Numbered from the stretch's first letter, positions 14,045 through 31,444 are shown. The stretch is 32,000 nt of DNA from Candidatus Brocadia sp. (GCA_021650915.1 CP091279.1:930001-962000), one strand, 5' to 3'. The notes: generated from the letters alone by a model not told the origin. A program made the numbers and translations.

Positions 14045-17000
14045 TCATATCTTCCACCGGTAAAAGGAAAGCGAGCCGTTTTCAAGCGCCCATTTCTTCA
14101 GCACGATGGTCTGGACATAGAGGTCTTCCTTCATCGACAACGTGCCCTGAGCGCCCTTTTTCTCCATTTCTGACTCAAACTGGTCGATGAATTTCCTGAC
14201 GGCATCCTTTTCCAGATGGAGGCCCCTTTCCGTCTCGACAAAATCTTCCCGGCCAACAACCTTCAGGTTGATCAGGCGTATAATAAACCGGTCAATCCGC
14301 GCCCTGAACAGCTCTTCAATGTCGCACACAAGGGATTCATAGTTATCCTGCGGACTGTGCAAAAAACCCAGGTACGGATTCAGGCCAACCGCCCTCACCG
14401 TGGCATTGATACGGGAGAAGAGGAGGTAATAGCCCAGGTTCAGCAGGGAATTCATGCGGTCGGGACTCCGCCGGTCTCTCTTCTGAAGGGCAAAGGCATC
14501 GTCATCGATAAAGTTATTCAGCCTCTGGTAAATCTTCTTTGCCGCCGCCCCTTCCAGGCCGCGCACCTGCGCAACGTCACCTGCCTGATGCATCTGGCAG
14601 ATCACCCCTTCGAGTTCGCCGATAAACCGGTACTGCTCCTTGCGAAACCGCTGCTGAAAAAGGGCCAGGTAATTCTGCAGCTTGCCTGCGGCAAATTCCT
14701 TTGCAATACAGAGCAATTCGGTCTCAGAGAGTGAATAATACTTCCTCCCGTGTTCGTAAGAGACATCATAGTATTTTTTGGAATCCGGCTTCACCGTTGT
14801 GATGTAATACCCTGAGCCCAGCGCAATGGTGAGCGGGATATTGCCCTCCGTGCATTTCCTCAGCAGGGCGGTGGAAAATACGGTCTTTTCCATGACCATG
14901 ATCTCGCTGATCCGCCGCAACGGAATGGTCTCCACCACCTTCCTGTTCTTGCAAAGGTCAACGGCATCGCCATTCAGCGATAAAAACAGATACGGCTCTA
15001 CAATATATAATGGCTTCCGCAGCAGCTTCACGTCATCCTCGCCCTCCACCAGAACCGCAGACCTCTCGAACCGTATCCCCAGAAAATGAAACCCATCCCT
15101 GAGTGACCGAATAGCAGTCTTTTCTTTTTTTATCTTCAACCCCAACGTTGAAAGATACGACTCGGTATCCGATAAAACACCCTCTGCCTCTTCCTTCGTC
15201 CTGGTCAAAATAATAAAGTCATCTGCATACCGTATCAGCTTTACACCACGGGACGCATTGCCGCCTGCCGTCTTGTTTCCTGCGCCTCCCTTCGCATGGT
15301 CAGTCCCGGCATCCTCGTCGTGGCTGGCCAGACCCCACCGCTTTATCTGTTCGTCAAAGGAGTCCAGATAAAGGTTTGCAAGGATGGGGGAAAGCGGGCC
15401 GCCCTGGGCAAGCCCCTTTCTGCGTTCGTAATACGTGCCGTTCAGGATAAACCCGTTTCTTATCAATTTCAGCAGGATGTTTTTTAGGCAGACGTCATTC
15501 TGCGGAATAGAGCAGTCGAGCAGGTGTTCCAAAATATCCAGGTCCACGGATGGGAAAAAGTCCTCGATATCCGACTCGATCACGCACTGATAACCTTCGG
15601 CAATGGCGGACTGAATCATCCCGATAGACCGCTGTCGTGAGACCCCTTTTCTGAATCCAATGGATTCCGCTTCAAAAAAGCGGTCAAACACCGTTGAGAT
15701 GACCTTTAAAAGGTATTGCTGCACGATCAAATCCCGGAACGATAGCTGCTCAACGACCCGATCGACACCGCTCTTCTTCTTGATGGTAAAGGCAATGTGA
15801 GGGGTGGGCAGATAGCCATTACTGACGATGAGCTGAAAGAGATTCTCTGCGTACTGGTTTTCATCAAACGGGTACTTTTCCGTTTCCGACAGCGCCTGCA
15901 GCGCATGGTCATACCGGTTAATGACGTCGCGGATGACTGACACGATGATCTTCTTGTTGGGAAAGAAGGACTGAAAATATCCCGGCGACTCCTTGTGCAG
16001 GAGATAATATCCCTGGGAATTGGAGAGCTTTGTCCCGGCATGCACCTCGCTTCCCAGCAGCAAAAATGGCAGGAAATCCCTGAAACAACCCTTTATATAG
16101 AGCTTCCCCACGCAGCCATTGATGTATTGTGTCTGCCCCGGTTGGGACAGGGATGAGTGCCTGATCTCCGTGTAATTCCAGTAATACGGAAGGAGGGAAA
16201 ACCGGTCATCCTGACCGCGGTAAACGATCTCCCTGCCAAACAACCGTGAAAATCTCTTTTCCAGCGACCTGATAAATGCAGTCCTGGCAAGATAGGTGCG
16301 TGCCTTGCCCTTCTCCGGTTTAAAGGGAAAGGGGGTCAGAAATTCCAGACAGATTTCCCCTTCGTCCGGCAGGTTATCCGCCTCCCCGGCAAGCTGGCCA
16401 AAACTCCGTTCCTCAACGTCTCCCAGGGTAACTACCTCAAAATTCCTGCCCGTTACCGGGTCGGACAGGTACGCCTGAAAGGCGTCCCTCCATTGCCTGA
16501 CGTACCCATGCCCTTTTCTGAAAAAAAAGATATCCAGGGACACCTTTTCATACTCGCGCATCTTCAGGCTGTGCCTCCTGCCCCTGGCATGGAAGATAAT
16601 CAGCGGTTCACGGGCTTCTTCCCCTTTCTTGCCCCGGGGAGACTCACCGTCCGTTTCACCGTGTTGGGTTTCCCCGGCAGGCGACGTCTCCCGGGGTAGT
16701 GGTTCGGCGTCTCCTTCCGCCCCCCCTGTCCGTTCCTCACCAGGAACGGGAGAAAGATCCCCTGTCAACTCAGGAGACTCGTTCCCCATCAAAGGAGCCG
16801 GGGCAGGACGTGGGCATGCTGACGCTGCCGGGGATTCCTTATTGGGTAATAATGCGGCTGCGGAGGGCGATACAGGCAGGAGAGAGACCCCCTTCATGAT
16901 TGCCTGGAAGACGGAAAAGGGGTGTGCGGACATTGCCGGCAATGAACGGATATTCATTACCGTTGCCGACAGGCGATGCCAGCGCAGGTCTGAAAGGGGA

Positions 17001-17095
17001 TGCGCATCCTTTGCATTCACGGGTACCTTACTCCTCATACAACAGAAGCATTCATGAAGTTGCCGCCCGGCTGCAACGATCAGTAAAAGAGACAA
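14045..17095 (-). CDS. cas1: Cas6-like / reverse transcriptase / Cas1 fusion protein (type III adaptation enzyme)
   Basis: RT motifs: SDIEDFFPSVD, GLAQGGPLSPILANLYLD, LIRYADDFIILT and FHFLGIRF. Cas1 motifs: RGLEGAAAKKIY, NSLLNLGYYLL and GLNPYLGFLHSPQDNYESLVCDIEELFR. N-terminal RAMP-like region ends in the G-rich loop HAGTKLSNSQGYY. Start is uncertain: the conserved part begins near 16600 and ATG 16561 is an alternative. Confidence 0.9.
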   Translation of the reverse strand: MSLLLIVAAGRQLHECFCCMRSKVPVNAKDAHPLSDLRWHRLSATVMNIRSLPAMSAHPFSVFQAIMKGVSLLPVSPSAAALLPNKESPAASACPRPAPAPLMGNESPELTGDLSPVPGEERTGGAEGDAEPLPRETSPAGETQHGETDGESPRGKKGEEAREPLIIFHARGRRHSLKMREYEKVSLDIFFFRKGHGYVRQWRDAFQAYLSDPVTGRNFEVVTLGDVEERSFGQLAGEADNLPDEGEICLEFLTPFPFKPEKGKARTYLARTAFIRSLEKRFSRLFGREIVYRGQDDRFSLLPYYWNYTEIRHSSLSQPGQTQYINGCVGKLYIKGCFRDFLPFLLLGSEVHAGTKLSNSQGYYLLHKESPGYFQSFFPNKKIIVSVIRDVINRYDHALQALSETEKYPFDENQYAENLFQLIVSNGYLPTPHIAFTIKKKSGVDRVVEQLSFRDLIVQQYLLKVISTVFDRFFEAESIGFRKGVSRQRSIGMIQSAIAEGYQCVIESDIEDFFPSVDLDILEHLLDCSIPQNDVCLKNILLKLIRNGFILNGTYYERRKGLAQGGPLSPILANLYLDSFDEQIKRWGLASHDEDAGTDHAKGGAGNKTAGGNASRGVKLIRYADDFIILTRTKEEAEGVLSDTESYLSTLGLKIKKEKTAIRSLRDGFHFLGIRFERSAVLVEGEDDVKLLRKPLYIVEPYLFLSLNGDAVDLCKNRKVVETIPLRRISEIMVMEKTVFSTALLRKCTEGNIPLTIALGSGYYITTVKPDSKKYYDVSYEHGRKYYSLSETELLCIAKEFAAGKLQNYLALFQQRFRKEQYRFIGELEGVICQMHQAGDVAQVRGLEGAAAKKIYQRLNNFIDDDAFALQKRDRRSPDRMNSLLNLGYYLLFSRINATVRAVGLNPYLGFLHSPQDNYESLVCDIEELFRARIDRFIIRLINLKVVGREDFVETERGLHLEKDAVRKFIDQFESEMEKKGAQGTLSMKEDLYVQTIVLKKWALENGSLSFYRWKI

Positions 17096-17140
17096 GAAGT
17101 TACCACATCCCGCGTATCCTTGTACAGAAAAAATTGCAGA

Positions 17141-17500: not shown

Positions 17501-17704
17501 CTAAATTGTTACGATAAATCCAGTCTTAATATGCAGTCCTTCCAGTCGCCCGATCAATTCGTCCCTCCCCCTCTTATTCAGCCTGCATTCAAAGACGCTC
17601 TTCTGCACCCAAAACCCGAACCCCTTCAGTACCTTATCCACCCTCTCCCGTTTCGCGTCGGAGGTGATGTCATACACCACGGCATAGTCAGATATCCCTT
17701 TCAT
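17501..17704 (-). pseudogene. cas2: 3'-truncated second copy of cas2 (67 codons)
   Basis: About 195 bp (17514-17709) differ at only 4 positions from 20944-21141. Homology to full-length cas2 ends after ...HIKTGFI, where family 3 repeat sequence takes over. Confidence 0.8.
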
Positions 17705-17766
17705 AGATTTTCAACGTCCCCCCGTCTGGTTCAATCGTGGACGATTGAACCAGCCAGGTTCGTGAT

Positions 17767-17833: not shown

Positions 17834-18250
17834 CTATCGAATCCAAAGGAAAGCGACCTCACCCTTTTTATCAAGAGTGTCGAACTCATGGTGGTCTGCC
17901 GTCATGATTCTTGCGCCTCTCGTCTTTGCCTCTGCAAGGGCGAGTGAATCGGCAAGAGATATTCTGTAAATTGCTTTTAACCTTCCTGCCTCTTTAAACA
18001 CAGCATCTTCCAACGTATCAATTGTTTGTAGTGGCAACGCCAGTATCTTGCTGAGGATTCCTTCAGCTTTGCCCTTGCCTTCTTCACGAAACACTCCGTA
18101 ATAAACCTCAGGCATGTTTATCTTGTTCATGTAAACGACACACTCTTCTTCGAACGCTTTTAAGAGTATGGCCTCAACTTTATCTGAGCCATCTTCATCA
18201 TTCAAAAAAGCAATAAGGGCACAGGCATCCAACACAAAGGCGTCTTTCAT
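17834..18250 (-). CDS. vapC: PIN-domain toxin (VapC family)
   Basis: 138 aa. N-terminal FVLDACALIAFL with a conserved acidic residue. TAATG one-base overlap with the upstream antitoxin ORF. Confidence 0.85.
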   Translation of the reverse strand: MKDAFVLDACALIAFLNDEDGSDKVEAILLKAFEEECVVYMNKINMPEVYYGVFREEGKGKAEGILSKILALPLQTIDTLEDAVFKEAGRLKAIYRISLADSLALAEAKTRGARIMTADHHEFDTLDKKGEVAFLWIR

Positions 18251-18468
18251 TATTCCAGTTCCTTTTCTTCTTTTTTCAGTCTCATATATTTTTCAGAAGA
18301 AAAATGGCTGCCTTTTAAGGAACCTCTTGCGTTCTTAATTTGGTTTTCTATTGGTTTTATCAGAATTCCTTCTTTTGTTTCGATAAATTCAACCTCTTTT
18401 CCTTTTAGCTTTCTTGCTATTTCTTCCGGAAGATTCAATCGATCTGATTTTATTACAAGAGTTTTCAT
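18250..18468 (-). CDS. vapB: AbrB/SpoVT-type antitoxin (VapB-like)
   Basis: MKTLVIKSDRLNLPEEIARKLKGKEVEFIETKEGILIKP resembles a swapped-hairpin antitoxin fold. The ORF is open from 18510; ATG 18468 is preferred. Confidence 0.7.
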   Translation of the reverse strand: MKTLVIKSDRLNLPEEIARKLKGKEVEFIETKEGILIKPIENQIKNARGSLKGSHFSSEKYMRLKKEEKELE

Positions 18469-18543
18469 GCCTGTAACCTTTCTAAGCGTAAAGTTAATAA
18501 AAGTATCCAATTATATTAACATTATGGTAAGTCTGTATCAAGT

Positions 18544-19138
18544 TTATAAATCAGGTGTTCCCCTTGCAGCATGCCATATTCTTACCATTTCAATTACCTT
18601 CTTGTTCCTTTTGACCCGATAGACAATTCGGTAAGGATTTTTCATTAGGCCTTCGGCGACTTCCCCCCCCTGTTTCCCCTCGCAAACAGGGGAAACAAAT
18701 AATGTCTCTCCCCGTTTACGGGGGGATTATGGGGGGTGTTTAAAATTCCTTACATTGAATCAGGCCATCGGCGACTTTTCATTATAAGGTTAAACCCACC
18801 CCTGAATCCCCTCCCAGGAGGGGACTTCTTTCGTCCCCTCTTGAGACTTCGTCGTGAGCTCAGTCGACCGAGGGGGTTGGGGGTGTGTAAGGCAGGAGCA
18901 AAAAGATTGGAATTCCCATACATTTAATGTAGAGCGACGAGGCTCGTCGCTCTACAACCGCATCTCGAAATTCCGGGACAACGCTACCTGATGCGGGAAA
19001 TTTTGGAAGTTGCTTTATGTGGTGGAGTATTTTGTTTCGAAATTGATTTGCAGCAGGGAGATTATTTTCCGCGATGAAAAGAATGATGTCCCGAAAGTCC
19101 AGCCTGGCAGTGGGTGACCACTCTATTTCGAGATCCAT
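18544..19138 (-). pseudogene. parE: ParE/RelE-family toxin gene split by a ~335-bp nested repeat insertion
   Basis: N-terminal fragment (19138 to ~18978): MDLEIEWSPTARLDFRDIILFIAENNLPAANQF...VVPEF. C-terminal fragment (~18640 to 18544): NPYRIVYRVKRNKKVIEMVRIWHAARGTPDL*. Family 2 repeat sequence lies between them. Confidence 0.7.
18641..18977. repeat. nested family 2 modular repeat insertion (two units plus the palindrome GTAGAGCGACGAGGCTCGTCGCTCTAC)
   Basis: Shares core, flank and palindrome modules with 4451-4681 and 25216-25489. Confidence 0.65.
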
Positions 19139-19287: not shown

Positions 19288-20672
19288 GTTTCAGTTCCTA
19301 CCATCAGAAATGTCCCCTCGTCCCTCGTCTTTCGTCCCTCGTCTTTTGTCTCTCTTTACCGTCTCAGTTCCTACCGGCAGAAAGATCCTTCCAGATCACG
19401 TTTTTAGGAGGGAAAGGCCGGATAAACGCTAGCGTAAACTGATTGGTACCTTAACCATCGACTCAACATCAAACATCGAACATCGAATGTCGAATTACGA
19501 GGTTTTCTTATCCTTCGACATTCATGATTCCTTGTTCGACATTCGATTTCTTTCTATCGTTTCAGTTCCTACCGGCAGGAATGTCCTTTCAGACATTACC
19601 GCGATTTTTTTTCTCCCCATAGCGATATGGTTTCAGTTCCTACCGGCAGGAATGTCCTTTCAGACTTTAAAACTACCGGTTTAACCATGAAGAGTTTGTT
19701 TCAGTTCCTACCGGCAGGAATGTCCTTTCAGACAAGAACATCGCGGTACTCGCGATGTTTCTACTGTTTCAGTTCCTACCGGCAGGAATGTCCTTTCAGA
19801 CATGCCACATCGAGGGATGTCCGGTGTTGGCCAAGTTTCAGTTCCTACCGGCAGGAATGTCCTTTCAGACAGGTGTTCAACACTATGGGGGGAACGCAGA
19901 GTTTCAGTTCCTACCGGCAGGAATGTCCTTTCAGACTTGTGTTTAACGGGCTCTTGTCCAGTGCTTGGGTTTCAGTTCCTACCGGCAGGAATGTCCTTTC
20001 AGACAATTGAGGAATTGCGAGAAAAGGGATTCTTGGGTTTCAGTTCCTACCGGCAGGAATGTCCTTTCAGACTTGTTGGGGGCAAAAAGGAGAGAGAATG
20101 GCTGTTTCAGTTCCTACCGGCAGGAATGTCCTTTCAGACATGGATTGGAAGGGAAAGGCGTTTGTGATACTGTTTCAGTTCCTACCGGCAGGAATGTCCT
20201 TTCAGACCAACCTGCGTGACGGTCGGTTGACCCCCTAGTTTCAGTTCCTACCGGCAGGAATGTCCTTTCAGACCTTCAGGCGAATCTTTCTCTTTCCGCA
20301 AGAAAGTTTCAGTTCCTACCGGCAGGAATGTCCTTTCAGACTGAGGTATTTAGTTTTACGCGGCATTTGATTGTTTCAGTTCCTACCGGCAGGAATGTCC
20401 TTTCAGACCATGGAAGTCACTTGCCCTCGTGGGCGTTTGTTTCAGTTCCTACCGGCAGGAATGTCCTTTCAGACTGTCAAGGAGATTACCATGAGCAAGA
20501 TTTGTTTCAGTTCCTACCGGCAGGAATGTCCTTTCAGACCGAACTGAACTGGGGCGGCGGCGATTTCAGGTTTCAGTTCCTACCGGCAGGAATGTCCTTT
20601 CAGACTGAGTTGGAAAGGAAAGGCGTTTGTAACACTGTTTCAGTTCCTACCGGCAGGAATGTCCTTTCAGAC
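19288..20672 (-). CRISPR. CRISPR array: 17 identical 36-bp repeats (19559-20672) with 16 spacers of 29-35 bp, plus two degenerate repeats at 19288-19323 and 19361-19396
   Basis: Plus-strand repeat is GTTTCAGTTCCTACCGGCAGGAATGTCCTTTCAGAC. The minus-strand form GTCTGAAAGGACATTCCTGCCGGTAGGAACTGAAAC ends in the canonical ...GAAAC tag region and matches the cas gene strand. Degenerate repeats lie at the low-coordinate (trailer) end. Confidence 0.95.
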
Positions 20673-20851: not shown

Positions 20852-21136
20852 TTAGACAATAAATGCATGGCCGTCATCAATATTCGCCTTTTTCATCTGA
20901 CCGATTACGGTGTCCCTGGATGAGTATTCTAACCGATACACCTTGATAAATCCAGTCTTAATATGCAGTCCTTCCAGTCGCCCGATCAATTCGTCCCTCC
21001 CCCTCTTATTCAACCTGCATTCAAAGACGCTCTTCTGCACCCGAAACCCGAACCCCTTCAGTACCTTATCCACCCTCTCCCGTTCCGCGTCGGAGGTGAT
21101 GTCATACACCACGGCATAATCAGATATCCCTTTCAT
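20852..21136 (-). CDS. cas2: CRISPR-associated endoribonuclease Cas2
   Basis: 94 aa. VVYDITSD...RVQKSVFECRL is the classic Cas2 ferredoxin-fold signature. Confidence 0.9.
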   Translation of the reverse strand: MKGISDYAVVYDITSDAERERVDKVLKGFGFRVQKSVFECRLNKRGRDELIGRLEGLHIKTGFIKVYRLEYSSRDTVIGQMKKANIDDGHAFIV

Positions 21137-21256
21137 AGATTTTTAAAGAACCCCTTTCTGACCCATGATATTTCAAACGCTCCTGCCCGGAGCAGAGACC
21201 GTCGCCCGGATCTCTTTCGTCCTTTCATAAAGGAAATTTGGTTGCGGCTGTGCTGC

Positions 21257-21388
21257 GTTATGCAATTATGGTTAACCCCGCAGGGGTGGCATAGTATCGC
21301 TGTTTTTCCGATATTTCACCCCTGCGGGGTTGAATATAGCGGTGCGTTTTTTCTATAATCATGTCATCCCTTCGGGATTTTTCAAAAA
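21257..21388 (+). repeat. family 3 repeat, second copy
   Basis: Near-identical to 17367-17500. Followed by hairpins at 21399-21423 and 21488-21502, which parallel 17726-17753 and 17767-17785. Confidence 0.7.
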
Positions 21389-21525
21389 GCTCCAAAGCTG
21401 GTTCAATCTTGCAGATTGAACCATTTATTTATTATGTATACTTCCTAACCCGAACGGGTCGGAAAAGTCAAAATCAGAAGCACGAGATTCATGATTCAAC
21501 CCTGTCAGGGTTAATTTTGCCCTAT

Positions 21526-22332
21526 TCATAATCCAGGACTCAGGAACCGTAAAAACGCTTCCCTTGTCATGGGGGTGGTTATCTCCGTGCCCCAGAACAG
21601 GGAGACCTTTTCGTCTCCGCCGGAATAGCCGCCGAACCGTTTCTGGAGGGCCCTGGCCCTTGCGGGAGAGCCGTAAAAGTTGATTTTTTGCATCGTATTT
21701 TCAGCGTCTACCGTGAATACGACCAAATCCATACAAAGTATCCTTTTCTCATTTTCGAAGAAATGCAGGTCTGACACATATGAGGTCTTTTCACAATTTG
21801 TCTCCACAACGTATAAATCCTGACCCCGATTACAGCCTTTCAGATAATCTCTTCTCAGCGTTTCAAAATATTCAGGTTTATACCCCTGGGCCTCAAGGTC
21901 ATACTGCCGTATCTCCAGCATTTCGTCTTCTGAGTATCCTTGTTTTCTTAATGCAGGAATATATCCCCGGTCATTCAGGGCAACACCCATCTGCCACCGG
22001 TTGAGGGTATATGAAATCAGGCAGGCGAATTGCTCCAGAGCGCTTACCGGATACAACCGCTTTAAATGCGGATATTGATGATGGTCCAGCACGAAGAGAT
22101 TGTGCCCTTTCTCTTGTAATTCCTTTTCTTTCAGAACATCCGGCATTTCCACAACAATCACGTGCCTCTTTAAATCGGCAAAGGTCTCATCGGGCTCCCG
22201 TGAAAGCACTGCCCCCCACCCTTGTGCTGATATGCGGACATCAAAAGATAACTTTTTAGCGATTTCTATAATCAAACGGCTTTCACCATCGTTGCACGGA
22301 CAGATTATGGTTGTGTTGGTGTTGTGAATCAT
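21526..22332 (-). CDS. DHH/DHHA1-like phosphoesterase (NrN/NrnA-like, CRISPR-associated)
   Basis: 268 aa. Motif I-like IICPCNDGES, motif II-like VIVVEMPD, motif III FVLDHHQ, and a DHHA1 GGGH-like FGGYSGGDEK near the C-terminus. Sits directly downstream of the CorA-like gene in the cmr operon. Confidence 0.6.
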   Translation of the reverse strand: MIHNTNTTIICPCNDGESRLIIEIAKKLSFDVRISAQGWGAVLSREPDETFADLKRHVIVVEMPDVLKEKELQEKGHNLFVLDHHQYPHLKRLYPVSALEQFACLISYTLNRWQMGVALNDRGYIPALRKQGYSEDEMLEIRQYDLEAQGYKPEYFETLRRDYLKGCNRGQDLYVVETNCEKTSYVSDLHFFENEKRILCMDLVVFTVDAENTMQKINFYGSPARARALQKRFGGYSGGDEKVSLFWGTEITTPMTREAFLRFLSPGL

Positions 22333-22410
22333 TGTTCAACGCTTAAATTGAAATACCATCTTATTTCCTGGACAGCACATGCCTTGCTCCTTCTGGGTTG
22401 TCACTATTTA

Positions 22411-24009
22411 CTATGGTTCTTTGGGAGAACACCACCGGGATAGCTTATCTTTAAGCCGTGATATCATTTTGCAGTTAACTGTATGCCTGAAGCGCGGACA
22501 AAAGAAAACAAATAATAAACCCATACCGAGAATAATCGCAATGATCTTAAAGGGCAGGGCATTTTTTATCTGGCAGACATCACATTGCAAAATACCCACA
22601 ATCAACCCCAGGATAAGAACAGGAAAGCCCACATACGTAATCATTGTCACTCTGCTATTGGTTTCTGCCTCTATTTTGTCTTCCACATATCCGGCCAATT
22701 CTGAAATCTCTCTTTGCAGTTCATCGTAGAGTTTTTCCAGATTCAGCAAACCCATCCATTGATCATAGATTTCAATTCCTTGCTCCTGTGGGGTAACTTC
22801 AATGAACCAGTATTTATTAACAAATTTTATAAATTCACCATGCAACCTGTCTGAGTCATCTTTGAGTTTTTTTGAACACCTTCCGGTTTCAAATTCACCG
22901 GTCAACCCATCAATATCCTCTGCAAACTTCAGGAGCATCGCCCGCTGAAAGAGGACAATCAGGGCTATCTGGTAATACATGGATTTCATGTGCTGTTTCA
23001 AATATGACGGGGCATCCGTGGCGCAGAGCAACACGAAACTGTACCGGCTCATGCCAAACAATGACCCACTCTTTGCCCATCGGGCGTAGGTGTGTCTTCG
23101 TATTAAATCGTATTTCATCGCATCGTTTTCAATATTGGCGTAATTCCCGTCAACAAAGATAAAACGATACCAGTCATCGGACGTCTCATAAACATAGCCA
23201 GCGCAGCATCTATCTTGCAGTTCTTTCGATTTCGCATTATCCGAGTAATACGAAACGATAAACATGCGATCGTCAATGAAGGGGGTATAGTAAATCTTGC
23301 CGTTGTCCATTGACATGTTATACGTATGTTTCAAGTCAAAGGGAGCAAGGAGTTCTTTGATGATATTGCTTAAATACACAATATCTTTATACTTATCTTT
23401 GTACTTCGCTTCCTCAAGATCGATGGGTTTAAAATCCTCATGTATGAAATCTTTGGGGTCGCTGTCTTTGCATAAGGAAATTTTCACCGGGAGTATTTTT
23501 GATTCCAATTTGGGAGAACAGGTATTGTTTTCTCCCAGATACGGTGGATAGACCCTCCGTGCAATATCGTTATATCGGAGAAATGTCTGAAAATCGGTCT
23601 TGCTGTCTCCACGCTGTTTTTCGGTGGTTATGGTCAGCAGTCCAATCTGATTATCAAAGAGGTGGATATCGATTTCATTGACTTGTGTCTCCATCGTTTG
23701 TTGCATGTTGTTCGAATCATAATATTCCAGCTTTAAGGTATGAAAATCCGTTCGTTTCAGGAATTCCATCCCGACGTTCCCTTCTTTATTGAATATTGCC
23801 CGCTGAACATAGGGATGAAAGTAAGAGAACTCGTTGTAGTTCTTAATAGAATCAAGGGCATAATGTGCTATCGCCCAGCCTTTTTCGCTATCATTGTTGC
23901 CGCTGCTCAATATGTGAGCAATCTTATCAGGTTCTAAATTTTTTTTGTCTGCCCTTTCATACTTAAAGGGAAATATAAATATGGTAGAAAAGTCGTTGTT
24001 ATTATTCAT
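22411..24009 (-). CDS. CRISPR-associated CorA-like membrane protein (large soluble N-domain, stalk helix, two C-terminal TM helices)
   Basis: 532 aa. C-terminus NSRVTMITYVGFPVLILGLIVGILQCD-loop-LPFKIIAIILGMGLLFVFFCPRF-basic tail mirrors CorA N..M..LT...P...GMN topology, but without GMN. ATGA overlap with cmr6 (24006-24009). Confidence 0.6.
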   Translation of the reverse strand: MNNNNDFSTIFIFPFKYERADKKNLEPDKIAHILSSGNNDSEKGWAIAHYALDSIKNYNEFSYFHPYVQRAIFNKEGNVGMEFLKRTDFHTLKLEYYDSNNMQQTMETQVNEIDIHLFDNQIGLLTITTEKQRGDSKTDFQTFLRYNDIARRVYPPYLGENNTCSPKLESKILPVKISLCKDSDPKDFIHEDFKPIDLEEAKYKDKYKDIVYLSNIIKELLAPFDLKHTYNMSMDNGKIYYTPFIDDRMFIVSYYSDNAKSKELQDRCCAGYVYETSDDWYRFIFVDGNYANIENDAMKYDLIRRHTYARWAKSGSLFGMSRYSFVLLCATDAPSYLKQHMKSMYYQIALIVLFQRAMLLKFAEDIDGLTGEFETGRCSKKLKDDSDRLHGEFIKFVNKYWFIEVTPQEQGIEIYDQWMGLLNLEKLYDELQREISELAGYVEDKIEAETNSRVTMITYVGFPVLILGLIVGILQCDVCQIKNALPFKIIAIILGMGLLFVFFCPRFRHTVNCKMISRLKDKLSRWCSPKEP

Positions 24010-24767
24010 GTGAAATACCCGTAAAACACACTGGTTTTCGCCCCAACGCCAAATTCAGACAGGGCGTATTTTAAAATATTTTCCGTCTTTTTTAAAAGAG
24101 GCGACTCCTTATCCCTGAGATTTTTCCTGTGGGCCAGACGGAAACAGTATTTCTCCCCTGCGGGAACGGTCAAAAAATGGAGCGGAAGCGGTGAATACCA
24201 GTCAGCAGGCGGGTTATTGACGGGGTCTGAATAATATTTACTGTAATGAGGCGTCATAACGTCCAATTCCAGAAATGGTTTGTTATTGTCAATTAAACAG
24301 GGGTAGGCGGGGAAGAAGACAATCTCTCCTGCCTGAGCATCTCCGTTTTCTGCCCCAAAAATCCCGGCAATATCGTCATGGTTGTCTGTTTCAGCGGCAT
24401 ATCGCGCTATGCCCTTTAAAGAGCTCCCCGGAATGACCGGCAGACCGCTCGTCCAGTCAAAGGCGAAACCGATCTCCGTTGGGTGTTCGTAACCCATGCC
24501 AAAGACAAGGCGGGAAACAGTGGTCATGGTGAAGGTGATGCCGATGCCTTCCATAAGCCTTTTTCTGTTTTCAAATGCCTCTCGATATGCTTTGCTCTTT
24601 GATAAGGTAATGAAGGATTCGAAAAACTTACCCTTTCTCTTGCTGTCAACCTCCTGGAATTTATTGTCGTTATAAATATCCGCCCACTTATAATATTTAA
24701 GGGACAGGTTAGGGGTTGATAAATTATCCGTATTACCTCTTATATCTTTAGGAAGCGGGAGTTTCAT
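24006..24767 (-). CDS. cmr6: type III-B RAMP protein Cmr6
   Basis: 253 aa. GLPVIPGSSLKGIARY, a C-terminal G-rich loop FGVGAKTSVFYGYF, and MTPHY. Confidence 0.85.
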   Translation of the reverse strand: MKLPLPKDIRGNTDNLSTPNLSLKYYKWADIYNDNKFQEVDSKRKGKFFESFITLSKSKAYREAFENRKRLMEGIGITFTMTTVSRLVFGMGYEHPTEIGFAFDWTSGLPVIPGSSLKGIARYAAETDNHDDIAGIFGAENGDAQAGEIVFFPAYPCLIDNNKPFLELDVMTPHYSKYYSDPVNNPPADWYSPLPLHFLTVPAGEKYCFRLAHRKNLRDKESPLLKKTENILKYALSEFGVGAKTSVFYGYFT

Positions 24768-25146
24768 CGCCTCTCTCCTTATTGGTTTTTATATAAAATG
24801 CAAGGGCAAATTTTTTCATCCACCCTGCGTATTCAATTGCCTCTTTTTGTCTGAGGGCATATTCTTTTACTTCCATATTCAAAATGGCATCAATCAGATT
24901 GTCCTCTCCAAACAGTTTTTTGAAAACATCAACAATGTCTTCGTACCCCTCCTTGCTCTGCAAATAGGCAATGGTCTGGCCAAGGCCGTTCTGCATAATC
25001 ATTGGCGGCAGGCCTTTCAGGAAATTGACCTTTGTTTCGTCCAGTTTCTGTATCATTTCCTGCATGAGCGGCAAAACCTTCCCTCCCCGCGCTACGGATG
25101 CGGGCTGTAACTTTTTACCGCCGTCTGTCCCTGTTATATCAGCCAT
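24748..25146 (-). CDS. cmr5: type III-B small subunit Cmr5 (Cas11 family)
   Basis: 132 aa, helical. MQNGLGQTIAYLQSK is a Cmr5-type motif. Position between cmr4 and cmr6; GGGGAGGG RBS upstream. Confidence 0.8.
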   Translation of the reverse strand: MADITGTDGGKKLQPASVARGGKVLPLMQEMIQKLDETKVNFLKGLPPMIMQNGLGQTIAYLQSKEGYEDIVDVFKKLFGEDNLIDAILNMEVKEYALRQKEAIEYAGWMKKFALAFYIKTNKERGDETPAS

Positions 25147-25215
25147 TTTGCCCTCCCCATGGTTTAATCTTTGATAAAATATGGCAACATCTTCGGCAAA
25201 AATTAAGAACGCAAT

Positions 25216-25489
25216 TCAATCATGCCTTCAGTGACCTTCTCAATGTAGGGCGACGAGGCTCGTCGCTCTACAATTCTACAACCGCAACTTTGAAATTCCT
25301 GCACATTGGATTAGACCTTATCGATTTTTTATCATACGATAAAACCCACCCCTGAATCCCCTCTTTCTAGAGGGGAATTACAAAAGATTGAAATTCCTTA
25401 CATTTAATCAACCCTATCAGGGTTTAAAACCCTGACAGGGTTGACTCACGAATTCTGCGCATCGGACTTCGTCGTGAGCGCTCAGTCGA
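25216..25489. repeat. family 2 modular repeat plus tandem AACCCT..AGGGTT hairpins filling the cmr4-cmr5 gap
   Basis: Palindrome GTAGGGCGACGAGGCTCGTCGCTCTAC, core ACCCACCCCTGAATCCCCTC, TTGAAATTCCTTACATT flank, hairpins at 25410-25442. The module GACTTCGTCGTGAGCGCTCAGTCGA is also present at ~18845-18870. Confidence 0.65.
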
Positions 25490-26366
25490 ACGATTTTATC
25501 TTTTCCGGCCCAACGGGGTTGGGCGTTTGCGCAATATTATGGCTCATCTTCACAAAACCATAGCCTATGGTCTCATTACCCCCTATCTGTAATATCCGCC
25601 CGGCAATCTTCGCGCATAATTTTAACATTACGTCATCACTGCCCCGGTAAGCAGGTTTCATGATCGTGTAGAAGACGGCATCCGCGGGCACAACTTCTTC
25701 ATACCAGAGGTTCTTACTCTTTTTGGTATCGTTGTCTAACACATTTCTGGCGATGACCTGTGTGGCAGTCGTGACAAGGGTTTTAAAGATATCGTCGGCA
25801 ACGATAATGAGCCTTTGCCTGAAAATATCTTCGGGAAAAAAATGCGGAACGGTAAGGCTTTTGAGAAATGCAAACAAGGCAGATGAAGATGCAGAGCCAT
25901 CTGCAACGGCAACCGGAAAGTCTTCCAAAATTACCCGACTGGCATAAGCAGGGCTCCGGAAGGCAATATTGTCGGCGGCTGCTTCATTTCGGGATATCCC
26001 AATAAACTGCAAATCGCGCTTGAGTCTCTCGATAACAAACGGGCAGGTGATCCACTTAAACACCCCTTCCGATGAGCGGACCGGGAAGAGGAGTATTTTG
26101 GCATCCGTAAAAACCACTTTGCCTGATGCGCTGTCTCTTTGATCATTGCCCTCTGTGCCAAAGATAGCGTTGATATCCGTCTCAGACGGTCCGTCCCATT
26201 CAAAAAAACACCGCAGGCTTCCCTTCATTGCGGATGAGAACACCACAGGATATTCCGTATGCTTCTCCCGCTGCACAGTCAGGTCAATTGCCCCTGCCGA
26301 GTCTCCTGCCCCTGCATGAAGCGGTGTGAGTGCATAAAAGGTAAATAAACTGCCGTTGTCAGACAT
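25482..26366 (-). CDS. cmr4: type III-B RAMP protein Cmr4 (Cas7 backbone/target RNase subunit)
   Basis: 294 aa. ALTPLHAGAGDSAGAIDLTVQRE carries the conserved Asp (D28) in the position of the catalytic Asp. SSAMKGSLR is also present. Confidence 0.9.
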   Translation of the reverse strand: MSDNGSLFTFYALTPLHAGAGDSAGAIDLTVQREKHTEYPVVFSSAMKGSLRCFFEWDGPSETDINAIFGTEGNDQRDSASGKVVFTDAKILLFPVRSSEGVFKWITCPFVIERLKRDLQFIGISRNEAAADNIAFRSPAYASRVILEDFPVAVADGSASSSALFAFLKSLTVPHFFPEDIFRQRLIIVADDIFKTLVTTATQVIARNVLDNDTKKSKNLWYEEVVPADAVFYTIMKPAYRGSDDVMLKLCAKIAGRILQIGGNETIGYGFVKMSHNIAQTPNPVGPEKIKSFD

Positions 26367-26378
26367 AATTTCTCCCCC

Positions 26379-27554
26379 CTATAACCTATGCCCATTTGCC
26401 AGAACGACATGGTTAAATCCCATGCTGGAATATGGCGTATTTTTCAGCTTTCTGTTATCATAATCCTGTACAAACTTTCTTATTGCCTCATCTGAGGTGG
26501 CTGCCGGCAACCTGAACAGATAAACCGCCCCTGCCGGAACCGCATTTTTTAAAGGTTTCAGAGATATTCCCTGCTGCCGGGTTGTTTTCGTATTTTTTTC
26601 AAAACTGTAACCGCTTACCCTGAGAGGTGGCCGGGTAAATGCAAAGAGCAGCTCGAGGTGCAGACCGTCCGCCTCAAATAGATTCTTCTTCTCTTCTTTC
26701 TGCCGGAAAGGTATCCAGCCTTGCTCAAATATGCCGTGCTGGAGCAGCGCCATTCTGAACGTCTTTGTTTTTATCATCTCAGAGATAAGCGTCTCTCTTG
26801 TTTGTCCGAATTTCTGTTCAAGAAGGGAATCAGAGGCAATGCCGCTCACATACACCAGATGCGATTCGCTGCCAAGCTTCAGGGCGCCGGCGGCAAGAGG
26901 TTTGTCCGTCGCGCAATAAAAGCCCATACGATCGCGCAACCGGTTGTACGGTGTGGTGTAGAATTTCGTTTCCTCCACCGTCCTGTTGTGTTCCCTGAGT
27001 TTTGCCGTATCAAGGGTGATGCCGACACGGTCTTCAGGCATCCAAAGCCCTTTCTCCGCGACTTCCATCTCATTCAGAGAAAGCCGGTACCTGCATATTT
27101 CCGACAGCGAGATAAATTCCGGCGGATACCGGTCGTCAAGTTTTCCGTCAGGGATAGTGGGACAACACAGGTCGAATCCGCAATCACTTTCCAACGACGC
27201 CATCTTTATCGGAAAGGCGGAATAACACCAACGATCCCCGTCATTCTTCCGGAAAAGATCGGAGGGCGTTTTGAAATAGATTTCCCCGGTATCAGCGTCC
27301 ATCAGATACGGGCCGGTAATATCCACGCCCAAGGTTTCATCGTTACCAATCTTTTCTCTCGCACGTTCCGCATCTGTCAGACTGCCGTGAGGATCAATCA
27401 GATGATGATCGGCAAGGAGTTTATTCCGGACAAAACCCTGGAAGGTTGACGGATACGGAGGGAATACCCCTTCTGTATACCATTCGCCAAAATGGAAGGA
27501 TTTATTACCCCTGAAGAACAATACATCGTAAGGTCTGACGAAATAATCGGGCAT
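26379..27554 (-). CDS. cmr3: type III-B protein Cmr3 (Cas5 family)
   Basis: 391 aa. N-terminal VRPYDVLFFRGNKSF is the Cmr3 signature. Position after cas10. Confidence 0.85.
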   Translation of the reverse strand: MPDYFVRPYDVLFFRGNKSFHFGEWYTEGVFPPYPSTFQGFVRNKLLADHHLIDPHGSLTDAERAREKIGNDETLGVDITGPYLMDADTGEIYFKTPSDLFRKNDGDRWCYSAFPIKMASLESDCGFDLCCPTIPDGKLDDRYPPEFISLSEICRYRLSLNEMEVAEKGLWMPEDRVGITLDTAKLREHNRTVEETKFYTTPYNRLRDRMGFYCATDKPLAAGALKLGSESHLVYVSGIASDSLLEQKFGQTRETLISEMIKTKTFRMALLQHGIFEQGWIPFRQKEEKKNLFEADGLHLELLFAFTRPPLRVSGYSFEKNTKTTRQQGISLKPLKNAVPAGAVYLFRLPAATSDEAIRKFVQDYDNRKLKNTPYSSMGFNHVVLANGHRL

Positions 27555-27556
27555 AT

Positions 27557-29242
27557 CTATTTATCTCCTGCTAAAAATCGGGCATATAAAAGCGCATTAA
27601 TCATTGCGTCAATACCCTCAAACTTCATCAAAAGCCCCACTATCTCCATAATTTCGGCGTTGGCTTTATCAACCCCTCTTGTTCCTGCAATGATGGTATA
27701 AAGATAGTTCTCTTTGTGCCTAGCATCAGTTATCGCCTTCAGAACCTCCTCTGACTCCTTTATGCGATAAGGCGTTGTCCGTGATATATCAGCGCTCAGT
27801 AGTAATTCCTTCAGCCTTTTTAAGTCTCCGATAAGTTTGTTGGAGAATGCGAAATTGAAAGTCTCTGTATGTCCTTTGATTAAAGAGATGGCGGTTGCAT
27901 TTTTACCCCTGAATTTCTTTGCCTTTCTGAGCATCCCGCAGGCAGAGAGTATCGCCTGTGACAACGGATATTTATGATAGCAAACAACAACCCCGGCAGA
28001 TAAGGTAAATTTTTCTGCCATAGGTTTAGTTAAATCATTTTTCAGAAAATAGCCGTTGTAGAGATTGTTCAATTCCCCGATGCAGTCGAGGAGATATTCC
28101 GGGTGGATGACGAAGTTTATATCCTCACCTCCGGCAAAGATAAGCTGTCCCTGATTACGCGAGACCGTGGCATTAACCGCATTTGAAAAATCTGATATTA
28201 TCCTTGAGACGTCTTGTATATAACCCGGGAATTTATCCCTGTTTTCCTTTAAAATATTTCCCATATTATCACCGTCCATAGAGATGATGCTATAGAAAGG
28301 ACGGTCGAGCCATGGTAGTTTTATCTTATCCTGATATTTTTCCGTCAACGACTTTTTCCACGCAGTAAACTTCTTTCTGAGATTCGGGTCATAAAAAAAT
28401 CTCCCCTCAGAGTCCTTCTCTTCTGAAATCTGCTCGCATTCCCTGATGAGCGCTTTGTATGCTTGTTTCATTTCATCATCTGCCGTATCAATGCATGCCT
28501 TGATTGGACTGAAAGCAATGTCAGAGGTGGATTGATAACGAGGTTTTTTTAATTCTGCCCTGGTACCCGAAAAAATGGACTTTACTGCCTCAGGCAGGAA
28601 TCTCTTTAACAGACAGACGCTGCAGATATGTTCTTCATTGTAAAGACCGGCATCTTTGTCCACTACTTTTGAATATATCCTTTTCCTGTCTCCGCACAGG
28701 CTGCATTTCTCCCATTTCGCAATCGAGTTGTTGCCGGTGATTTGCCTGAATGGTCTGAGGGCTGAACGTATCCTGATCTTACGTTCAGCCTCAAGAAATT
28801 CTTCAAAGGTGGGTTGTGCATCTTTAATCTCGTGTATCGTATAAAAGAAATGAAAGAAGTCTTTTAATTCGCCATGATCAAAAACACCTGCTTTTCCTTT
28901 TTGCTCCGCCAGTTTTCCCACTTTTAGAGCGATGGTCTTAACGATCTCTTCAATAATTGTTTTCAAACCATTTTCTATGGCACTCCTCCGGCTATCAGTA
29001 AAGGTGACATAAATCTGGTCGGGAACGCTTCCGCAAGCGATTGTCCCGTTCCGTCGATACATGGGGTTGTTATCAAGATACGGGAGAAACAGCGTGCCGC
29101 CGTTATTCGTAATATCCCTTGCAACCTCAGACATCACATAGGAAAAAAGGAAGGATGCGCCCCAGAAATCCACGGTCTTTCTGCTCTGCCTGACGAAGTC
29201 GTAGATAGGGCCTATTTCACAGATGAGGAGGTAGTTTTTCAT
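27557..29242 (-). CDS. cas10: Cas10/Cmr2, HD-less, 561 aa
   Basis: N-terminus IGPIYDFVRQSRKTVDFWGASFLFSY. Zn-finger CSLCGDRK...CSVCLLKR. Palm motifs SMDGDNMG and FAGGEDI (GGED at 28121-28132). No H-D motif region upstream. Confidence 0.9.
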   Translation of the reverse strand: MKNYLLICEIGPIYDFVRQSRKTVDFWGASFLFSYVMSEVARDITNNGGTLFLPYLDNNPMYRRNGTIACGSVPDQIYVTFTDSRRSAIENGLKTIIEEIVKTIALKVGKLAEQKGKAGVFDHGELKDFFHFFYTIHEIKDAQPTFEEFLEAERKIRIRSALRPFRQITGNNSIAKWEKCSLCGDRKRIYSKVVDKDAGLYNEEHICSVCLLKRFLPEAVKSIFSGTRAELKKPRYQSTSDIAFSPIKACIDTADDEMKQAYKALIRECEQISEEKDSEGRFFYDPNLRKKFTAWKKSLTEKYQDKIKLPWLDRPFYSIISMDGDNMGNILKENRDKFPGYIQDVSRIISDFSNAVNATVSRNQGQLIFAGGEDINFVIHPEYLLDCIGELNNLYNGYFLKNDLTKPMAEKFTLSAGVVVCYHKYPLSQAILSACGMLRKAKKFRGKNATAISLIKGHTETFNFAFSNKLIGDLKRLKELLLSADISRTTPYRIKESEEVLKAITDARHKENYLYTIIAGTRGVDKANAEIMEIVGLLMKFEGIDAMINALLYARFLAGDK

Positions 29243-30507
29243 AGTTTAAACTCTATGGGTGTTATCCCGCTCAATTGCTGACGGATAAATTCATCAAACA
29301 CCGTGTTATTGTGTACATATTTTCCGTTATTATTGTCTATCAGTATATCCATGCCTTGTGCTGGATTTGAAATCATAAAGAGAAAGGCAGGGTAATAGTG
29401 CTTCCCAATCTTATGGACACTGATCAATACAGGACTTGCAAAGCGATCGCCAATACCTTTGCCAGGTTCTTCTTTACGCTTTACCATTGCCTTATTTCCA
29501 TTGCTAAATCTGTATCCAATCGGAAGCCCAAAGACAGGCTTTTTCAGTCTATTTATATTATTATTCAGGACGGCAGATTTATCAGGCTGATATTCCTGCC
29601 TGAAATATTGAAATCTCTTGCCTGCTTCATTTAAAGCAAGTTCCCATGTTGTATACGGAATTTTGTCTAACGTCTCATTGCAAGTAACAGGTGTTTTATT
29701 TTCAATAAAAAACAATCTCGCATTTACCATATTTGTGTATTTTGTGCTGGAAATGCTTGATATACCCTTCCGTTGCCTGTATTGTTTCCAGCCCATCAGC
29801 CCCTGATCGACTAATTCTTTATGGCTATTTAAATCTTTGGCGGGGCAAAAATCAAAATGTTTCAAGACATCATCATGAAATGGCTTTGGTAAAATATCTA
29901 CCTGATTTGATTGTAACTTTCCAAACCCGCGCCTCGCCCTGTTACCAAAACCACCAAAATGAAGTGCAAACCAGAAGGAAATGAGGGCGTTTTCAAATGC
30001 CTGTTTGTCCACAGATGTCATAATCAGATCAAAAGTAGAGCCATGGGTAATAAACTTTCTTATATCAATTTTTCCCTCACGTGTCGTCTTAACATAATTG
30101 ATATAAGCCAGATACTGATAACCATTCAGTGGATAATTTTTGCCCTCTACCTTTGAACACTGATAATTTGCCCAGCAGGTATTGCGCCATTCCTTTATCT
30201 CTATCTTTGGATTTTCAATTCTTATTTTTATCTTTGAAGCAACGTCTGTGCTTCCGAATATCTCGTCTTCTGATCTCTTTAATAGTTCAAGATTATCCCC
30301 GCCGAAAATAGCTCTGAACCACCACCGTAATACCCCTTTCAGAGAAGGAACCCGCAATTCAGCGGTTTTTAACTTTTCTTGCCAATTTATTGTTGTCTTT
30401 CCTTGTTTATTTTTACGAGTTTCAGAGAATTTTTTACCATCCGCAATTTCCCCATTACTCATCATCAAGGGTGTTATTACCTCTAATTTGAAATTGGCTT
30501 TATACAT
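29239..30507 (-). CDS. cmr1: type III-B RAMP protein Cmr1
   Basis: 422 aa. LEVITPLMMSNGE...LRVPSLKGVLRWWFRAIFGG. GAGGAG RBS. ATGA overlap with cas10. Confidence 0.8.
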   Translation of the reverse strand: MYKANFKLEVITPLMMSNGEIADGKKFSETRKNKQGKTTINWQEKLKTAELRVPSLKGVLRWWFRAIFGGDNLELLKRSEDEIFGSTDVASKIKIRIENPKIEIKEWRNTCWANYQCSKVEGKNYPLNGYQYLAYINYVKTTREGKIDIRKFITHGSTFDLIMTSVDKQAFENALISFWFALHFGGFGNRARRGFGKLQSNQVDILPKPFHDDVLKHFDFCPAKDLNSHKELVDQGLMGWKQYRQRKGISSISSTKYTNMVNARLFFIENKTPVTCNETLDKIPYTTWELALNEAGKRFQYFRQEYQPDKSAVLNNNINRLKKPVFGLPIGYRFSNGNKAMVKRKEEPGKGIGDRFASPVLISVHKIGKHYYPAFLFMISNPAQGMDILIDNNNGKYVHNNTVFDEFIRQQLSGITPIEFKL

Positions 30508-30952
30508 AGATAAACTCCTCTCGGCCTATTTTAATACCTGTTCTTATAATTTATGGTTTTGTTTCATAAAGAAAAGAATACCTTTTAAATATTACCGCCA
30601 TTAAATGAGGGTGGATTAAGGCGATCTCTAATATCACCGTATCCACCACTCATTCCAGATTTTTATGCTGTCGCTTGTTGGTGGATGCGCTCCGTTTCAT
30701 CCACCCTACATAAACGAAGCGAATGTGTGCACAGAATGGAAGGATATCTCTTTCCCGCCCCTGCCGATCCGTAATTCGGCAATGGGTTTGTGCCGATGAA
30801 CAGAACCAGATCCGTGACGGAGTGCATGGATGGCCTCCTTGTGTCAAAGTGACAAAATAAAGGCAGCCGTTGATTTCCGGAAAAACTTTCAGCATTCTAT
30901 AAACTATTTTCAAAAAAAGGAAACAAAAAATCGACCGCTTCTTTTTTTAATC

Positions 30953-31172
30953 TCATAGCGCAGCAAGGCCGCAACCAATTCTCCGTTGTGAAAGCGGGGA
31001 GATTGCTTCGGACAAGACCCTCGCAATGACACTGGCTATGTCTTTGATGACATACGGTACGTTGTCATTGCGAGCAAAGCAATCCTTCTCTTATAAACAA
31101 ACGGTACCTTCTGATAAGGGGTAAATAGGGTTGCAAAAAAAGAAAAATTTTATACGGTAATGTTATAGATAT
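30953..31172 (+). repeat. family 1 hairpin repeat copy
   Basis: Aligns with the other copies. Preceded (30600-30730) by GGTGGAT...ATCCACC hairpin modules also seen at 6240-6350. Confidence 0.75.
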
Positions 31173-31444
31173 TCCATTTTATTGCACTGGAAGTCTCATT
31201 AACAGATTACGTTTGACATCCCATTCAGACATGTGATACCTTTAATGCTTCTTATTTAAAAACAGCCGGGTATTTATTCTGCGGGAAGAGTTGTGGACGT
31301 TAGTATAAAACATCTGCTGGCGACAAACACATTCAATGCCGTTTTTACGCCTTGTTCCCGAGTATGATGGACATTCATTCCTGTTAATCAAATGCCGGCG
31401 GCTACCAGTGCACTGTTTAATAATCAAGGTTGTTCGCTATACTT

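Follow-up and report, generated by a model that had tools for sequence, protein, structure and literature searches.

A type III-B CRISPR-Cas operon of Candidatus Brocadia with a GMN-less CorA-like protein and a predicted NrN phosphodiesterase: a probable divergent member of the SAM-AMP signalling class

Gene content of the locus

We analysed a 32-kb stretch of DNA from Candidatus Brocadia sp., an anammox bacterium (GCA_021650915.1, CP091279.1:930001-962000; hereafter "the window"), and found that it carries an intact type III-B (Cmr) CRISPR-Cas system. The cmr operon continues into two accessory genes, one for a CorA-like membrane protein and one for a predicted DHH phosphodiesterase of the NrN family, and these partners point to SAM-AMP, in which S-adenosylmethionine (SAM) is conjugated to a nucleotide, as the probable messenger of the system. 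The eight open reading frames (ORFs) of the operon, from cmr1 to nrn, are read from the minus strand (Table 1). A first-pass annotation of this DNA had proposed the order cmr1-cas10-cmr3-cmr4-cmr5-cmr6 followed by genes for a 532-aa and a 268-aa protein, with the start of the former overlapping the cmr6 stop, and we recovered all eight ORFs at the positions it gave, together with the overlap (ATGA); nrn starts 78 bp downstream of corA. All six Cmr proteins of this one operon are named by Pfam and NCBIfam, so that the type III-B gene set is complete, the significance of these identifications is far above chance level, and the catalytic aspartate of Cmr4 is kept (D28 in AIDLTVQRE). The same annotation had seen no CARF, SAVED, Csx1/Csm6, Can, NucC or TIR protein, and our Pfam and PADLOC searches with every substantial ORF, which covered the whole 32 kb beyond the operon, likewise found none.

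Table 1. Features of the type III-B locus, in coordinates of the window
Feature	Coordinates	Strand	Description and best matches
cmr1	29239..30507	-	422 aa, RAMP; Pfam RAMPs 8e-22, TIGR01894 Cmr1 5.8e-18
cas10/cmr2	27557..29242	-	561 aa; TIGR02577 1.8e-40; Pfam Cmr2_N, Cas10-Cmr2_palm2, Cmr2_Zn-bd
cmr3	26379..27554	-	391 aa; Pfam Cas_Cmr3 1.3e-36
cmr4	25482..26366	-	294 aa; TIGR02580 1.7e-67
cmr4-cmr5 spacer repeat insertion	25147..25481	.	335 bp, hairpin-rich interspersed repeats
cmr5	24748..25146	-	132 aa; Pfam Cas_Cmr5 1.3e-16
cmr6	24006..24767	-	253 aa; TIGR01898 1.2e-44
corA-like effector	22411..24009	-	532 aa; PADLOC CorA 2.3e-103
nrn (predicted DHH phosphodiesterase)	21526..22332	-	268 aa; PADLOC C3a116 6.8e-21, DHH_CorA 6.5e-19
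cas2	20852..21136	-	94 aa; Pfam CRISPR_Cas2 5.2e-13, PADLOC Cas2
CRISPR array	19559..20672	-	17 identical 36-nt repeats, 16 spacers of 29-35 nt
cas6-RT-cas1 fusion (RT, reverse transcriptase)	14045..17095	-	1016-aa ORF; Pfam CRISPR_Cas6 3.5e-6, RVT_1 3.7e-30, Cas_Cas1 3.6e-59

The CorA-like protein, NrN, Cas10 and their relatives

Pfam and NCBIfam returned nothing for the two accessory proteins, which were resolved by PADLOC and by sequence and fold searches of the PDB. The 532-aa protein matches two PADLOC models of CRISPR-associated CorA, the better one (Table 1) over residues 8-503 and the other at 1.9e-91. A search of the protein database gave 498 homologues, the closest of which come from metagenome-assembled genomes (MAGs) of Candidatus Brocadia (73-99% identity), and it shows full-length homology (E=2.7e-61, 34% identity) to the NrN-CorA fusion proteins of Aliarcobacter butzleri, which Chi et al. 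assigned to the SAM-AMP-signalling cluster (PMC10600005). The AlphaFold monomer model, built from 51 homologues (predicted local distance difference test, pLDDT, 87.8; predicted template-modelling score, pTM, 0.82), comprises an α/β N-terminal domain, a 53-residue stalk helix (residues 424-476) and two further hydrophobic helices at the C-terminus. It can be divided into an N-terminal sensor domain (residues ~1-330), the stalk, which runs into the first transmembrane helix (TM1), a second one (TM2, 485-503) and a basic C-terminal helix. In a Foldseek search of the PDB with this model the top 18 matches were all CorA (Thermotoga maritima, Methanocaldococcus jannaschii; probability 0.98-1.0, E down to 2.8e-4), aligned over ~225 columns of the C-terminal part, and the N-terminal domain matched no PDB structure. 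With the profile of the family, T. maritima CorA is matched at 3e-5 over the stalk and transmembrane region, while phmmer with the single sequence found no match in the PDB; the family profile having reached canonical CorA only, the PDB copy searched yielded no structure of a CRISPR CorA. The modelled architecture agrees with the published description of CRISPR CorA as a unique sensor domain fused to a CorA-like transmembrane domain (PMC10600005). The proposal that this is a protein of the CorA type with two transmembrane helices stands, on the CRISPR-CorA profiles and the exclusively CorA fold matches of the monomer model.

Among 51 CorA homologues drawn from both clades described below, R151, R152 and D246 never vary, and conservation of D247 is 90% or more. 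In a pairwise alignment R151/R152 and D246/D247 correspond to RR157-158 and DD223-224 of a Bacteroides sp. CorA, i.e. to R152/R153 and D219/D220 of the Bacteroides fragilis protein, mutation of which abolishes immunity (PMC10600005); the B. fragilis sequences were represented in our comparisons by Bacteroides and Phocaeicola homologues and by PDB entries. The GMN motif had been described as lost, and the protein indeed reads VGILQCDVCQ at that position. Membership in the canonical CorA transporter family (CorA/Mrs2/Alr1, PF01544) was considered and rejected, with GMN missing and the score below the Pfam threshold. In the Brocadia subgroup the periplasmic loop that takes the place of GMN carries a conserved CxxC (QCDVCQ/K; CorA residues 476-481, window 22570-22590), which is absent from more distant CorAs of the window clade.

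The 268-aa protein, in which the first-pass annotation had recognised a DHH motif (residues 83-85), is predicted from its sequence and modelled fold to be a DHH phosphodiesterase of the NrN family. It matches the solved NrN structures 9lq9, 9lqa and 9lqc by sequence at ~1e-13 (best 7.6e-14), and its model (pLDDT 93.9) superimposes on 9lq9 over the whole chain (E=5.9e-15, template-modelling scores 0.68/0.74, root-mean-square deviation 3.7 Å, 271 columns). The next fold matches are NrN E21A with SAM-AMP and NrN D119A with SAH-AMP, 9lqa being NrN crystallised with SAM-AMP, and the generic DHH enzymes (DhhP, NrnA, GdpP, RecJ) rank clearly below NrN. In an alignment of 44 sequences (NrN proteins and domains, associated with both CorA clades) the protein keeps all family invariants, namely D15, E17, W39, A41, D83-H84-H85, Q101, N120-D121, R142, D145, Q149-G150, S184 and D188; E17 and D121 align with E21 and D119, the residues mutated in the deposited complexes. 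Foldseek with the predicted models therefore recovered both the CorA-like and the DHH fold that had been expected of the two proteins.

Analysis of the CorA homologues reveals two groups. The 52 best matches (at least 35% identity) lack G[MVI]N after TM1 and have no precomputed PF01544 match; in the other clade 59 of 68 proteins have GMN, GVN or GIN, and most match PF01544. The window clade comprises ~50 CorA and ~45 Cas10 cluster representatives, mostly from uncultivated lineages, such as Brocadia, Nitrospirota, Omnitrophica, Desantisbacteria, WS2, Firestonebacteria, Eisenbacteria and Altiarchaeales. Its gene order, cmr1-cas10-cmr3-cmr4-cmr5-cmr6-corA-nrn, often followed by RT-cas1-cas2, is found in L001, L002, L081, L082, L084 and L085, whereas ~45 genome loci of the GMN type, including those of Bacteroides and Phocaeicola (L060, L066), have the order nrn-corA-(cmr1)-cas10...cmr6; one locus (L083) is intermediate, with corA-nrn-cmr1.... 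Single-chain fusions exist on both sides, CorA-NrN in the window clade (P0029 and P0043, the latter at L084 10001-12391) and NrN-CorA in the GMN clade (P0053, P0060). Both fusion orders leave NrN cytoplasmic. The PADLOC profiles score classic members at 416-461 bits (CorA) and 230-248 bits (DHH_CorA) and members of the window clade at 313-344 and 62-73 bits; since the latter scores are lower, the profiles, although they detect the window clade, were evidently not built from it. We found no literature on GMN status in CRISPR CorA or on type III systems of Brocadia. The locus had been called a "highly diverged" member of its class. Its membership is upheld by the CorA and NrN families, but it is no isolated oddity: judging from these comparisons, it is a typical representative of a coherent and apparently undescribed subclade, characterized by GMN-less CorA, zinc-finger Cmr2 and conserved synteny.

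The CorA-NrN cassette of this subclade is also found outside type III-B. In a Nitrospirae MAG (JACRHB010000131; L004, 1266-12579) a GMN-less CorA, which has 44% identity to the window CorA, and an NrN (1e-80) come after a type III-D2-like module. This module consists of a Cas10 matching PDB entry 9wxh at 1.9e-45 (E8 conserved), a Cas7-Cas5 fusion and Cas7 fusions. According to the 2025 classification, III-D CorA loci lack known SAM-AMP-cleaving enzymes (PMC12669027); by its gene content L004 is an exception.

The sequence of the window Cas10 agrees at 100% identity with that of a public "Candidatus Brocadia sp." Cas10/Cmr2. Because the Cmr2_N/palm domain of the protein begins at residue 6 and its start overlaps the cmr1 stop, it has no HD domain, an absence that had been reported along with the palm/cyclase motif GGED, located at residues 371-374; a CxxC...CxxC zinc finger is formed by C180/C183/C207/C210. 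GGED and GGDD alternate inside the Cas10 clade, whose ~45 representatives share contigs with the CorA clade, and GGED occurs also in loci of the GMN type (L018, L039); the motif is not special. Residues E9 (CEIGP), D75 and R159 are invariant in the clade and E153 is nearly so. D75 (VPDQ) aligns with the universal Asp of the PDR motif in 46 CorA-linked Cas10s, i.e. with B. fragilis D70 and the N300 position of Pyrococcus furiosus, a column in which HD-bearing, non-CorA Cmr2s have Asn, and Glu9 sits at the E8 position of III-D2 Cas10. The column of B. fragilis E151 ("LDxxEL" in the classic clade, the R436 position of P. furiosus) is less certain: MAFFT places the variable R157 and the invariant R159 there or near, with alignments differing by 2-6 residues, the nearest conserved acid of the window clade being E153; hhalign leaves the stretch unaligned; and counting from the zinc-finger cysteines (P. 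furiosus Cmr2, 9arw) gives no fixed residue. In B. fragilis Cas10 the D70N substitution strongly lowers SAM-AMP synthesis, E151R has little effect, and the double mutant makes pppApA (PMC10600005).

The nearest sister Cas10s (P0163-P0165, ~30% identity) share the E/D/R signature of the window clade. Using E9 and D75 as a signature of SAM-AMP synthesis was tried and rejected, as the same residues are found in P0165, which stands beside a CARF-PIN protein. Since sister lineages with E/D/R use either CARF-PIN (L087) or a four-transmembrane (4TM) protein with an NrN-like DHH protein (L086), the acceptor residues are not diagnostic, and the messenger cannot be read from Cas10 alone. Locus L086 (7218-8770) is of type III-B, with the 4TM membrane effector (PADLOC 3.5e-52) adjoining the NrN-like protein (1.4e-70), and may represent a SAM-AMP pathway with a non-CorA effector; L087 (7560-8651) is a type III-B locus with the CARF-PIN effector.

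The CorA/NrN class of type III-B systems has been described before (PMC10600005, PMC11229360, PMC12255297), and both an HD-less Cas10 and an association with RT-Cas1 are already documented for it. On comparison of sequences and gene content, the window system appears to be a divergent member of this SAM-AMP signalling class and not a new kind of system. With the Cmr/CorA/NrN system of B. fragilis (Chi et al. 2023, PMC10600005) it shares Cmr1-6, an HD-less Cas10, a homologous CorA sensor domain with RR/DD, an NrN of the same predicted fold and with the same invariants, and an RT-Cas1 module nearby. It differs in the CorA (~28-30% identical, GMN missing), in the gene order (cmr→corA→nrn versus nrn→corA→cmr), in the Cas10, which belongs to another Cmr2 lineage (zinc finger, GGED, a basic residue aligned at or near the E151 position), in the more divergent NrN (66 bits versus ~248 bits on DHH_CorA) and in the host, an anammox planctomycete. 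The A. butzleri fusions, homologous to both the CorA and the NrN of the window, have NrN at the N-terminus and retain GMN, unlike the fusions of the window clade with C-terminal NrN; joining of the two in one chain argues that their activities work together. The type III-D2 CorA system (PMC13294483; PDB 9wxh) resembles the window in a CorA effector driven by a Cas10 that conjugates SAM, in the window only probably, and in the acidic residue at the E8/Glu9 position, but is built of Cas7x3/Cas7-5 instead of a multi-subunit Cmr complex, has a VapBC-like module in place of NrN, and encodes a CorA that is reported to be only ~15% identical to that of B. fragilis. Canonical T. maritima CorA (PF01544) shares the stalk helix and two transmembrane helices (Foldseek probability 1.0, profile 3e-5), whereas the window protein has no GMN, falls below the Pfam threshold, has unrelated N-terminal 330 residues and is encoded inside a CRISPR operon. 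The Actinomyces CorA/Csm6-2 loci, whose CorA is proposed to be activated by cyclic hexa-adenylate (cA6; PMC11229360), are another case of a divergent CorA clade on a different Cas10 lineage; they have Csm6-2 and no SAM-AMP-degrading enzymes, while the window has NrN and no CARF protein.

The probable messenger and rival explanations

We propose that CRISPR RNAs, presumably released from the 17-repeat array by Cas6-RT-Cas1 through its Cas6 domain, would guide the Cmr1-6 complex to complementary RNA, and that target binding would switch on the palm/cyclase site of Cas10 (GGED, with no HD nuclease). Cas10 would then join ATP and SAM into SAM-AMP, as its partners suggest, and this product may bind the Arg-Arg/Asp-Asp cluster in the N-terminal, cytoplasmic part of the CorA-like protein, as the mutagenesis of B. 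fragilis CorA leads one to expect. The stalk and the two-helix transmembrane module would perturb the membrane and arrest growth, probably not by Mg-selective conduction, since there is no GMN selectivity motif.

We put the probability that SAM-AMP, or a very close SAM conjugate, is the messenger at roughly 75%. The residues of the CorA ligand site are conserved, as are all invariants and the predicted fold of NrN; coupling of CorA and NrN is obligatory and extends to fusions; and L004 pairs a 44%-identical CorA and an NrN with a III-D2 Cas10 homologous to 9wxh, published III-D2 complexes being known to make SAM-AMP and SAM-AMP2 (PMC13294483). The earlier assignment of the locus to the CorA/NrN SAM-AMP class accords with this, both accessory proteins having been placed in their families by sequence and fold; identity and fold of the parts, key residues, synteny and fusions are observed; what is inferred is the nature of the messenger, where it binds and what follows at the membrane.

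Several points weigh against this reading. It is drawn from the partners of Cas10 and not from Cas10 itself, which lies outside the B. fragilis-type lineage (phmmer ~1e-18 to Bacteroides Cas10; the best PDB match is a different Cmr2, 9arw), and a basic or variable residue (R157) aligns with B. fragilis E151, R159 being invariant as in Cmr2s of the cyclic oligoadenylate (cOA) type. The E9/D75/R159 signature is shared by the sister protein P0165, whose neighbour is a CARF-PIN effector (L087). The CorA-like protein has neither GMN nor a PF01544 match at the gathering threshold. A hairpin repeat element stands inside the operon between cmr4 and cmr5, and a homologous Brocadia locus, discussed below, has decayed.

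The points concerning Cas10 and its sister bear on the idea that the same architecture serves another messenger, i.e. a cyclic or linear oligoadenylate, SAM-AMP2 or some other conjugate, to which a GMN-less CorA and NrN have co-adapted. The Cas10 lineage, separate from the B. fragilis type, keeps its zinc finger, activation by cA6 has been suggested for a CorA subclass of Actinomyces (PMC11229360), SAM-AMP2 is formed besides SAM-AMP by III-D2 complexes (PMC13294483), and the window NrN reaches 66-73 bits on the PADLOC NrN models versus 230-248 bits for classic members. In its strongest form this idea holds that GMN-less CorA, NrN on its C-terminal side and zinc-finger Cmr2 came together independently as a second lineage of CorA signalling, with a Cas10 whose acceptor site is of a "D + R" kind, a messenger not identical to B. 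fragilis SAM-AMP (e.g. SAM-AMP2 or another SAM/nucleotide conjugate) and a mode of action other than that of a Mg channel; among its sisters, one would have exchanged CorA for a 4TM effector and retained NrN (L086), and another uses CARF-PIN (L087). We regard both the general and the strong form as unlikely, for the NrN invariants and the RR/DD residues of CorA are common to the clade in which SAM-AMP was validated, B. fragilis NrN cuts neither cOA nor pApA, its Cas10 still makes SAM-AMP when E151 is replaced by Arg (PMC10600005), and the same cassette stands beside a III-D2 Cas10 of the SAM-AMP type in L004.

A remnant locus, decaying or silenced and conferring no immunity, is in our view quite improbable. 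The 335-bp insertion between cmr4 and cmr5, which could affect expression of cmr5, cmr6, corA and nrn, a truncated copy of cas2 (17513-17728), toxin-antitoxin genes inserted between the array and cas6-RT-cas1, and two spacers without an exact match in IMG/VR (the two that were tested) might be taken as signs of decay. The homologous locus of Ca. Brocadia sp. DTUAMX2 (L005, 5900-11660) has decayed: in place of cas10 and cmr3, which are lost, an MNT/HepT pair is fused behind what remains of cmr1, and a frameshift at the TPQEQG motif interrupts corA ahead of the stalk and transmembrane region, with nrn intact. In the window, by contrast, none of the ten cas and accessory ORFs is truncated and their catalytic residues are intact, the 17 repeats of the array are perfectly identical and its 16 spacers all differ, and a promoter/terminator consensus scan found terminator-like sites no commoner than in shuffled sequence. 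The notion that a housekeeping Mg2+ transporter and a nanoRNase merely adjoin the cmr operon has in its favour the CorA-like and DHH-like folds. It is effectively excluded by the synteny with cmr across several phyla, the existence of CorA-NrN fusions and the absence of GMN and of a PF01544 match; in addition, corA and cmr6 overlap at the start of the one and the stop of the other, and CRISPR-specific profiles and a CRISPR NrN structure give the best matches.

As the class is already published, the locus is chiefly of comparative value. A clade of ~50 CRISPR CorAs has shed GMN and yet keeps the ligand-site residues and NrN, which argues that Mg2+-selective conduction is not the basis of the CorA effector role and bears on the question of how CorA kills or arrests cells. 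The published two-residue signature of Cas10 should not be used alone to recognise SAM-AMP synthases, since this lineage appears to lack the Glu151-type acid. The CorA-NrN cassette moves between III-B and III-D2 backbones, and the host range of the class is widened to anammox Planctomycetes and many candidate phyla.

Adaptation module, array and interspersed repeats

The cas6-RT-cas1 gene matches PADLOC Cas1_IIIb at 2.2e-73 and contains the YADD motif; its Cas6 domain scores 28.1 bits against a cutoff of 25, and its true start is probably further downstream than the start of the ORF. The first-pass annotation had presented a Cas6-RT-Cas1 module as combined here with the CorA class. The fusion is present (14045-17095), but RT-Cas1 beside CorA III-B has already been documented (PMC10600005, Fig. 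1b legend). The array repeat reads GTCTGAAAGGACATTCCTGCCGGTAGGAACTGAAAC on the minus strand, with the leader on the cas2 side; this orientation is deduced from the 3' end of the repeat (...CTGAAAC) and from decay of repeats at the low-coordinate end, where two degenerate copies lie at the trailer end (~19288-19322 and ~19361-19395). Two spacers, one mid-array (20140-20171) and one at the leader end (20606-20636), are ~90% identical (…GGAAAGGCGTTTGT…), which suggests repeated acquisition from variants of one target; IMG/VR gave no exact match.

A fragment of cas2 (17513-17728), adjoining cas6-RT-cas1, comprises the first 64 codons and is 95% identical to 20945-21160. It is cut by a repeat element (17366-17502) that is also present upstream of the intact cas2 (21256-21391), which indicates that the adaptation module has been rearranged through repeats. 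Between the array trailer and cas6-RT-cas1 are a PIN (VapC-like) gene and its 86-aa partner (17834-18510), as well as a ParE-like toxin gene (18860-19138). Defence by type III-D2 CorA systems depends on a VapBC-like module (PMC13294483); the PIN/VapB-like and ParE-like genes of the window have no counterparts in the related loci, and for this reason we do not count them as parts of the system. The genes flanking the locus are of the housekeeping kind (histidine kinase, ABC exporter, alcohol dehydrogenase, GGDEF protein, Na/H exchanger, multihaem cytochrome), and Rfam and tRNA scans of the window gave no match.

Repeat families D13-D15 of the cmr4-cmr5 insertion occur also at 4469-4602 and 18726-18957 (e.g. 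TGTAGAGCGACGAGCCTCGTCGCCCTACA); the insertion is absent from L081, L082, L084 and L085, where cmr4 and cmr5 abut or overlap. We also found a ~230-nt interspersed repeat with sharp ends in four copies (6372-6605, 8647-8882, 17133-17371 and 30950-31174; ~75% column identity), two of which are located immediately upstream of cas6-RT-cas1 and cmr1. Each copy, which has no Rfam match, ends in a promoter-like stretch, TTGCAA...TAATATTATA, on the plus strand, and the repeat could be a miniature inverted-repeat transposable element (MITE), a small RNA or a regulatory element.

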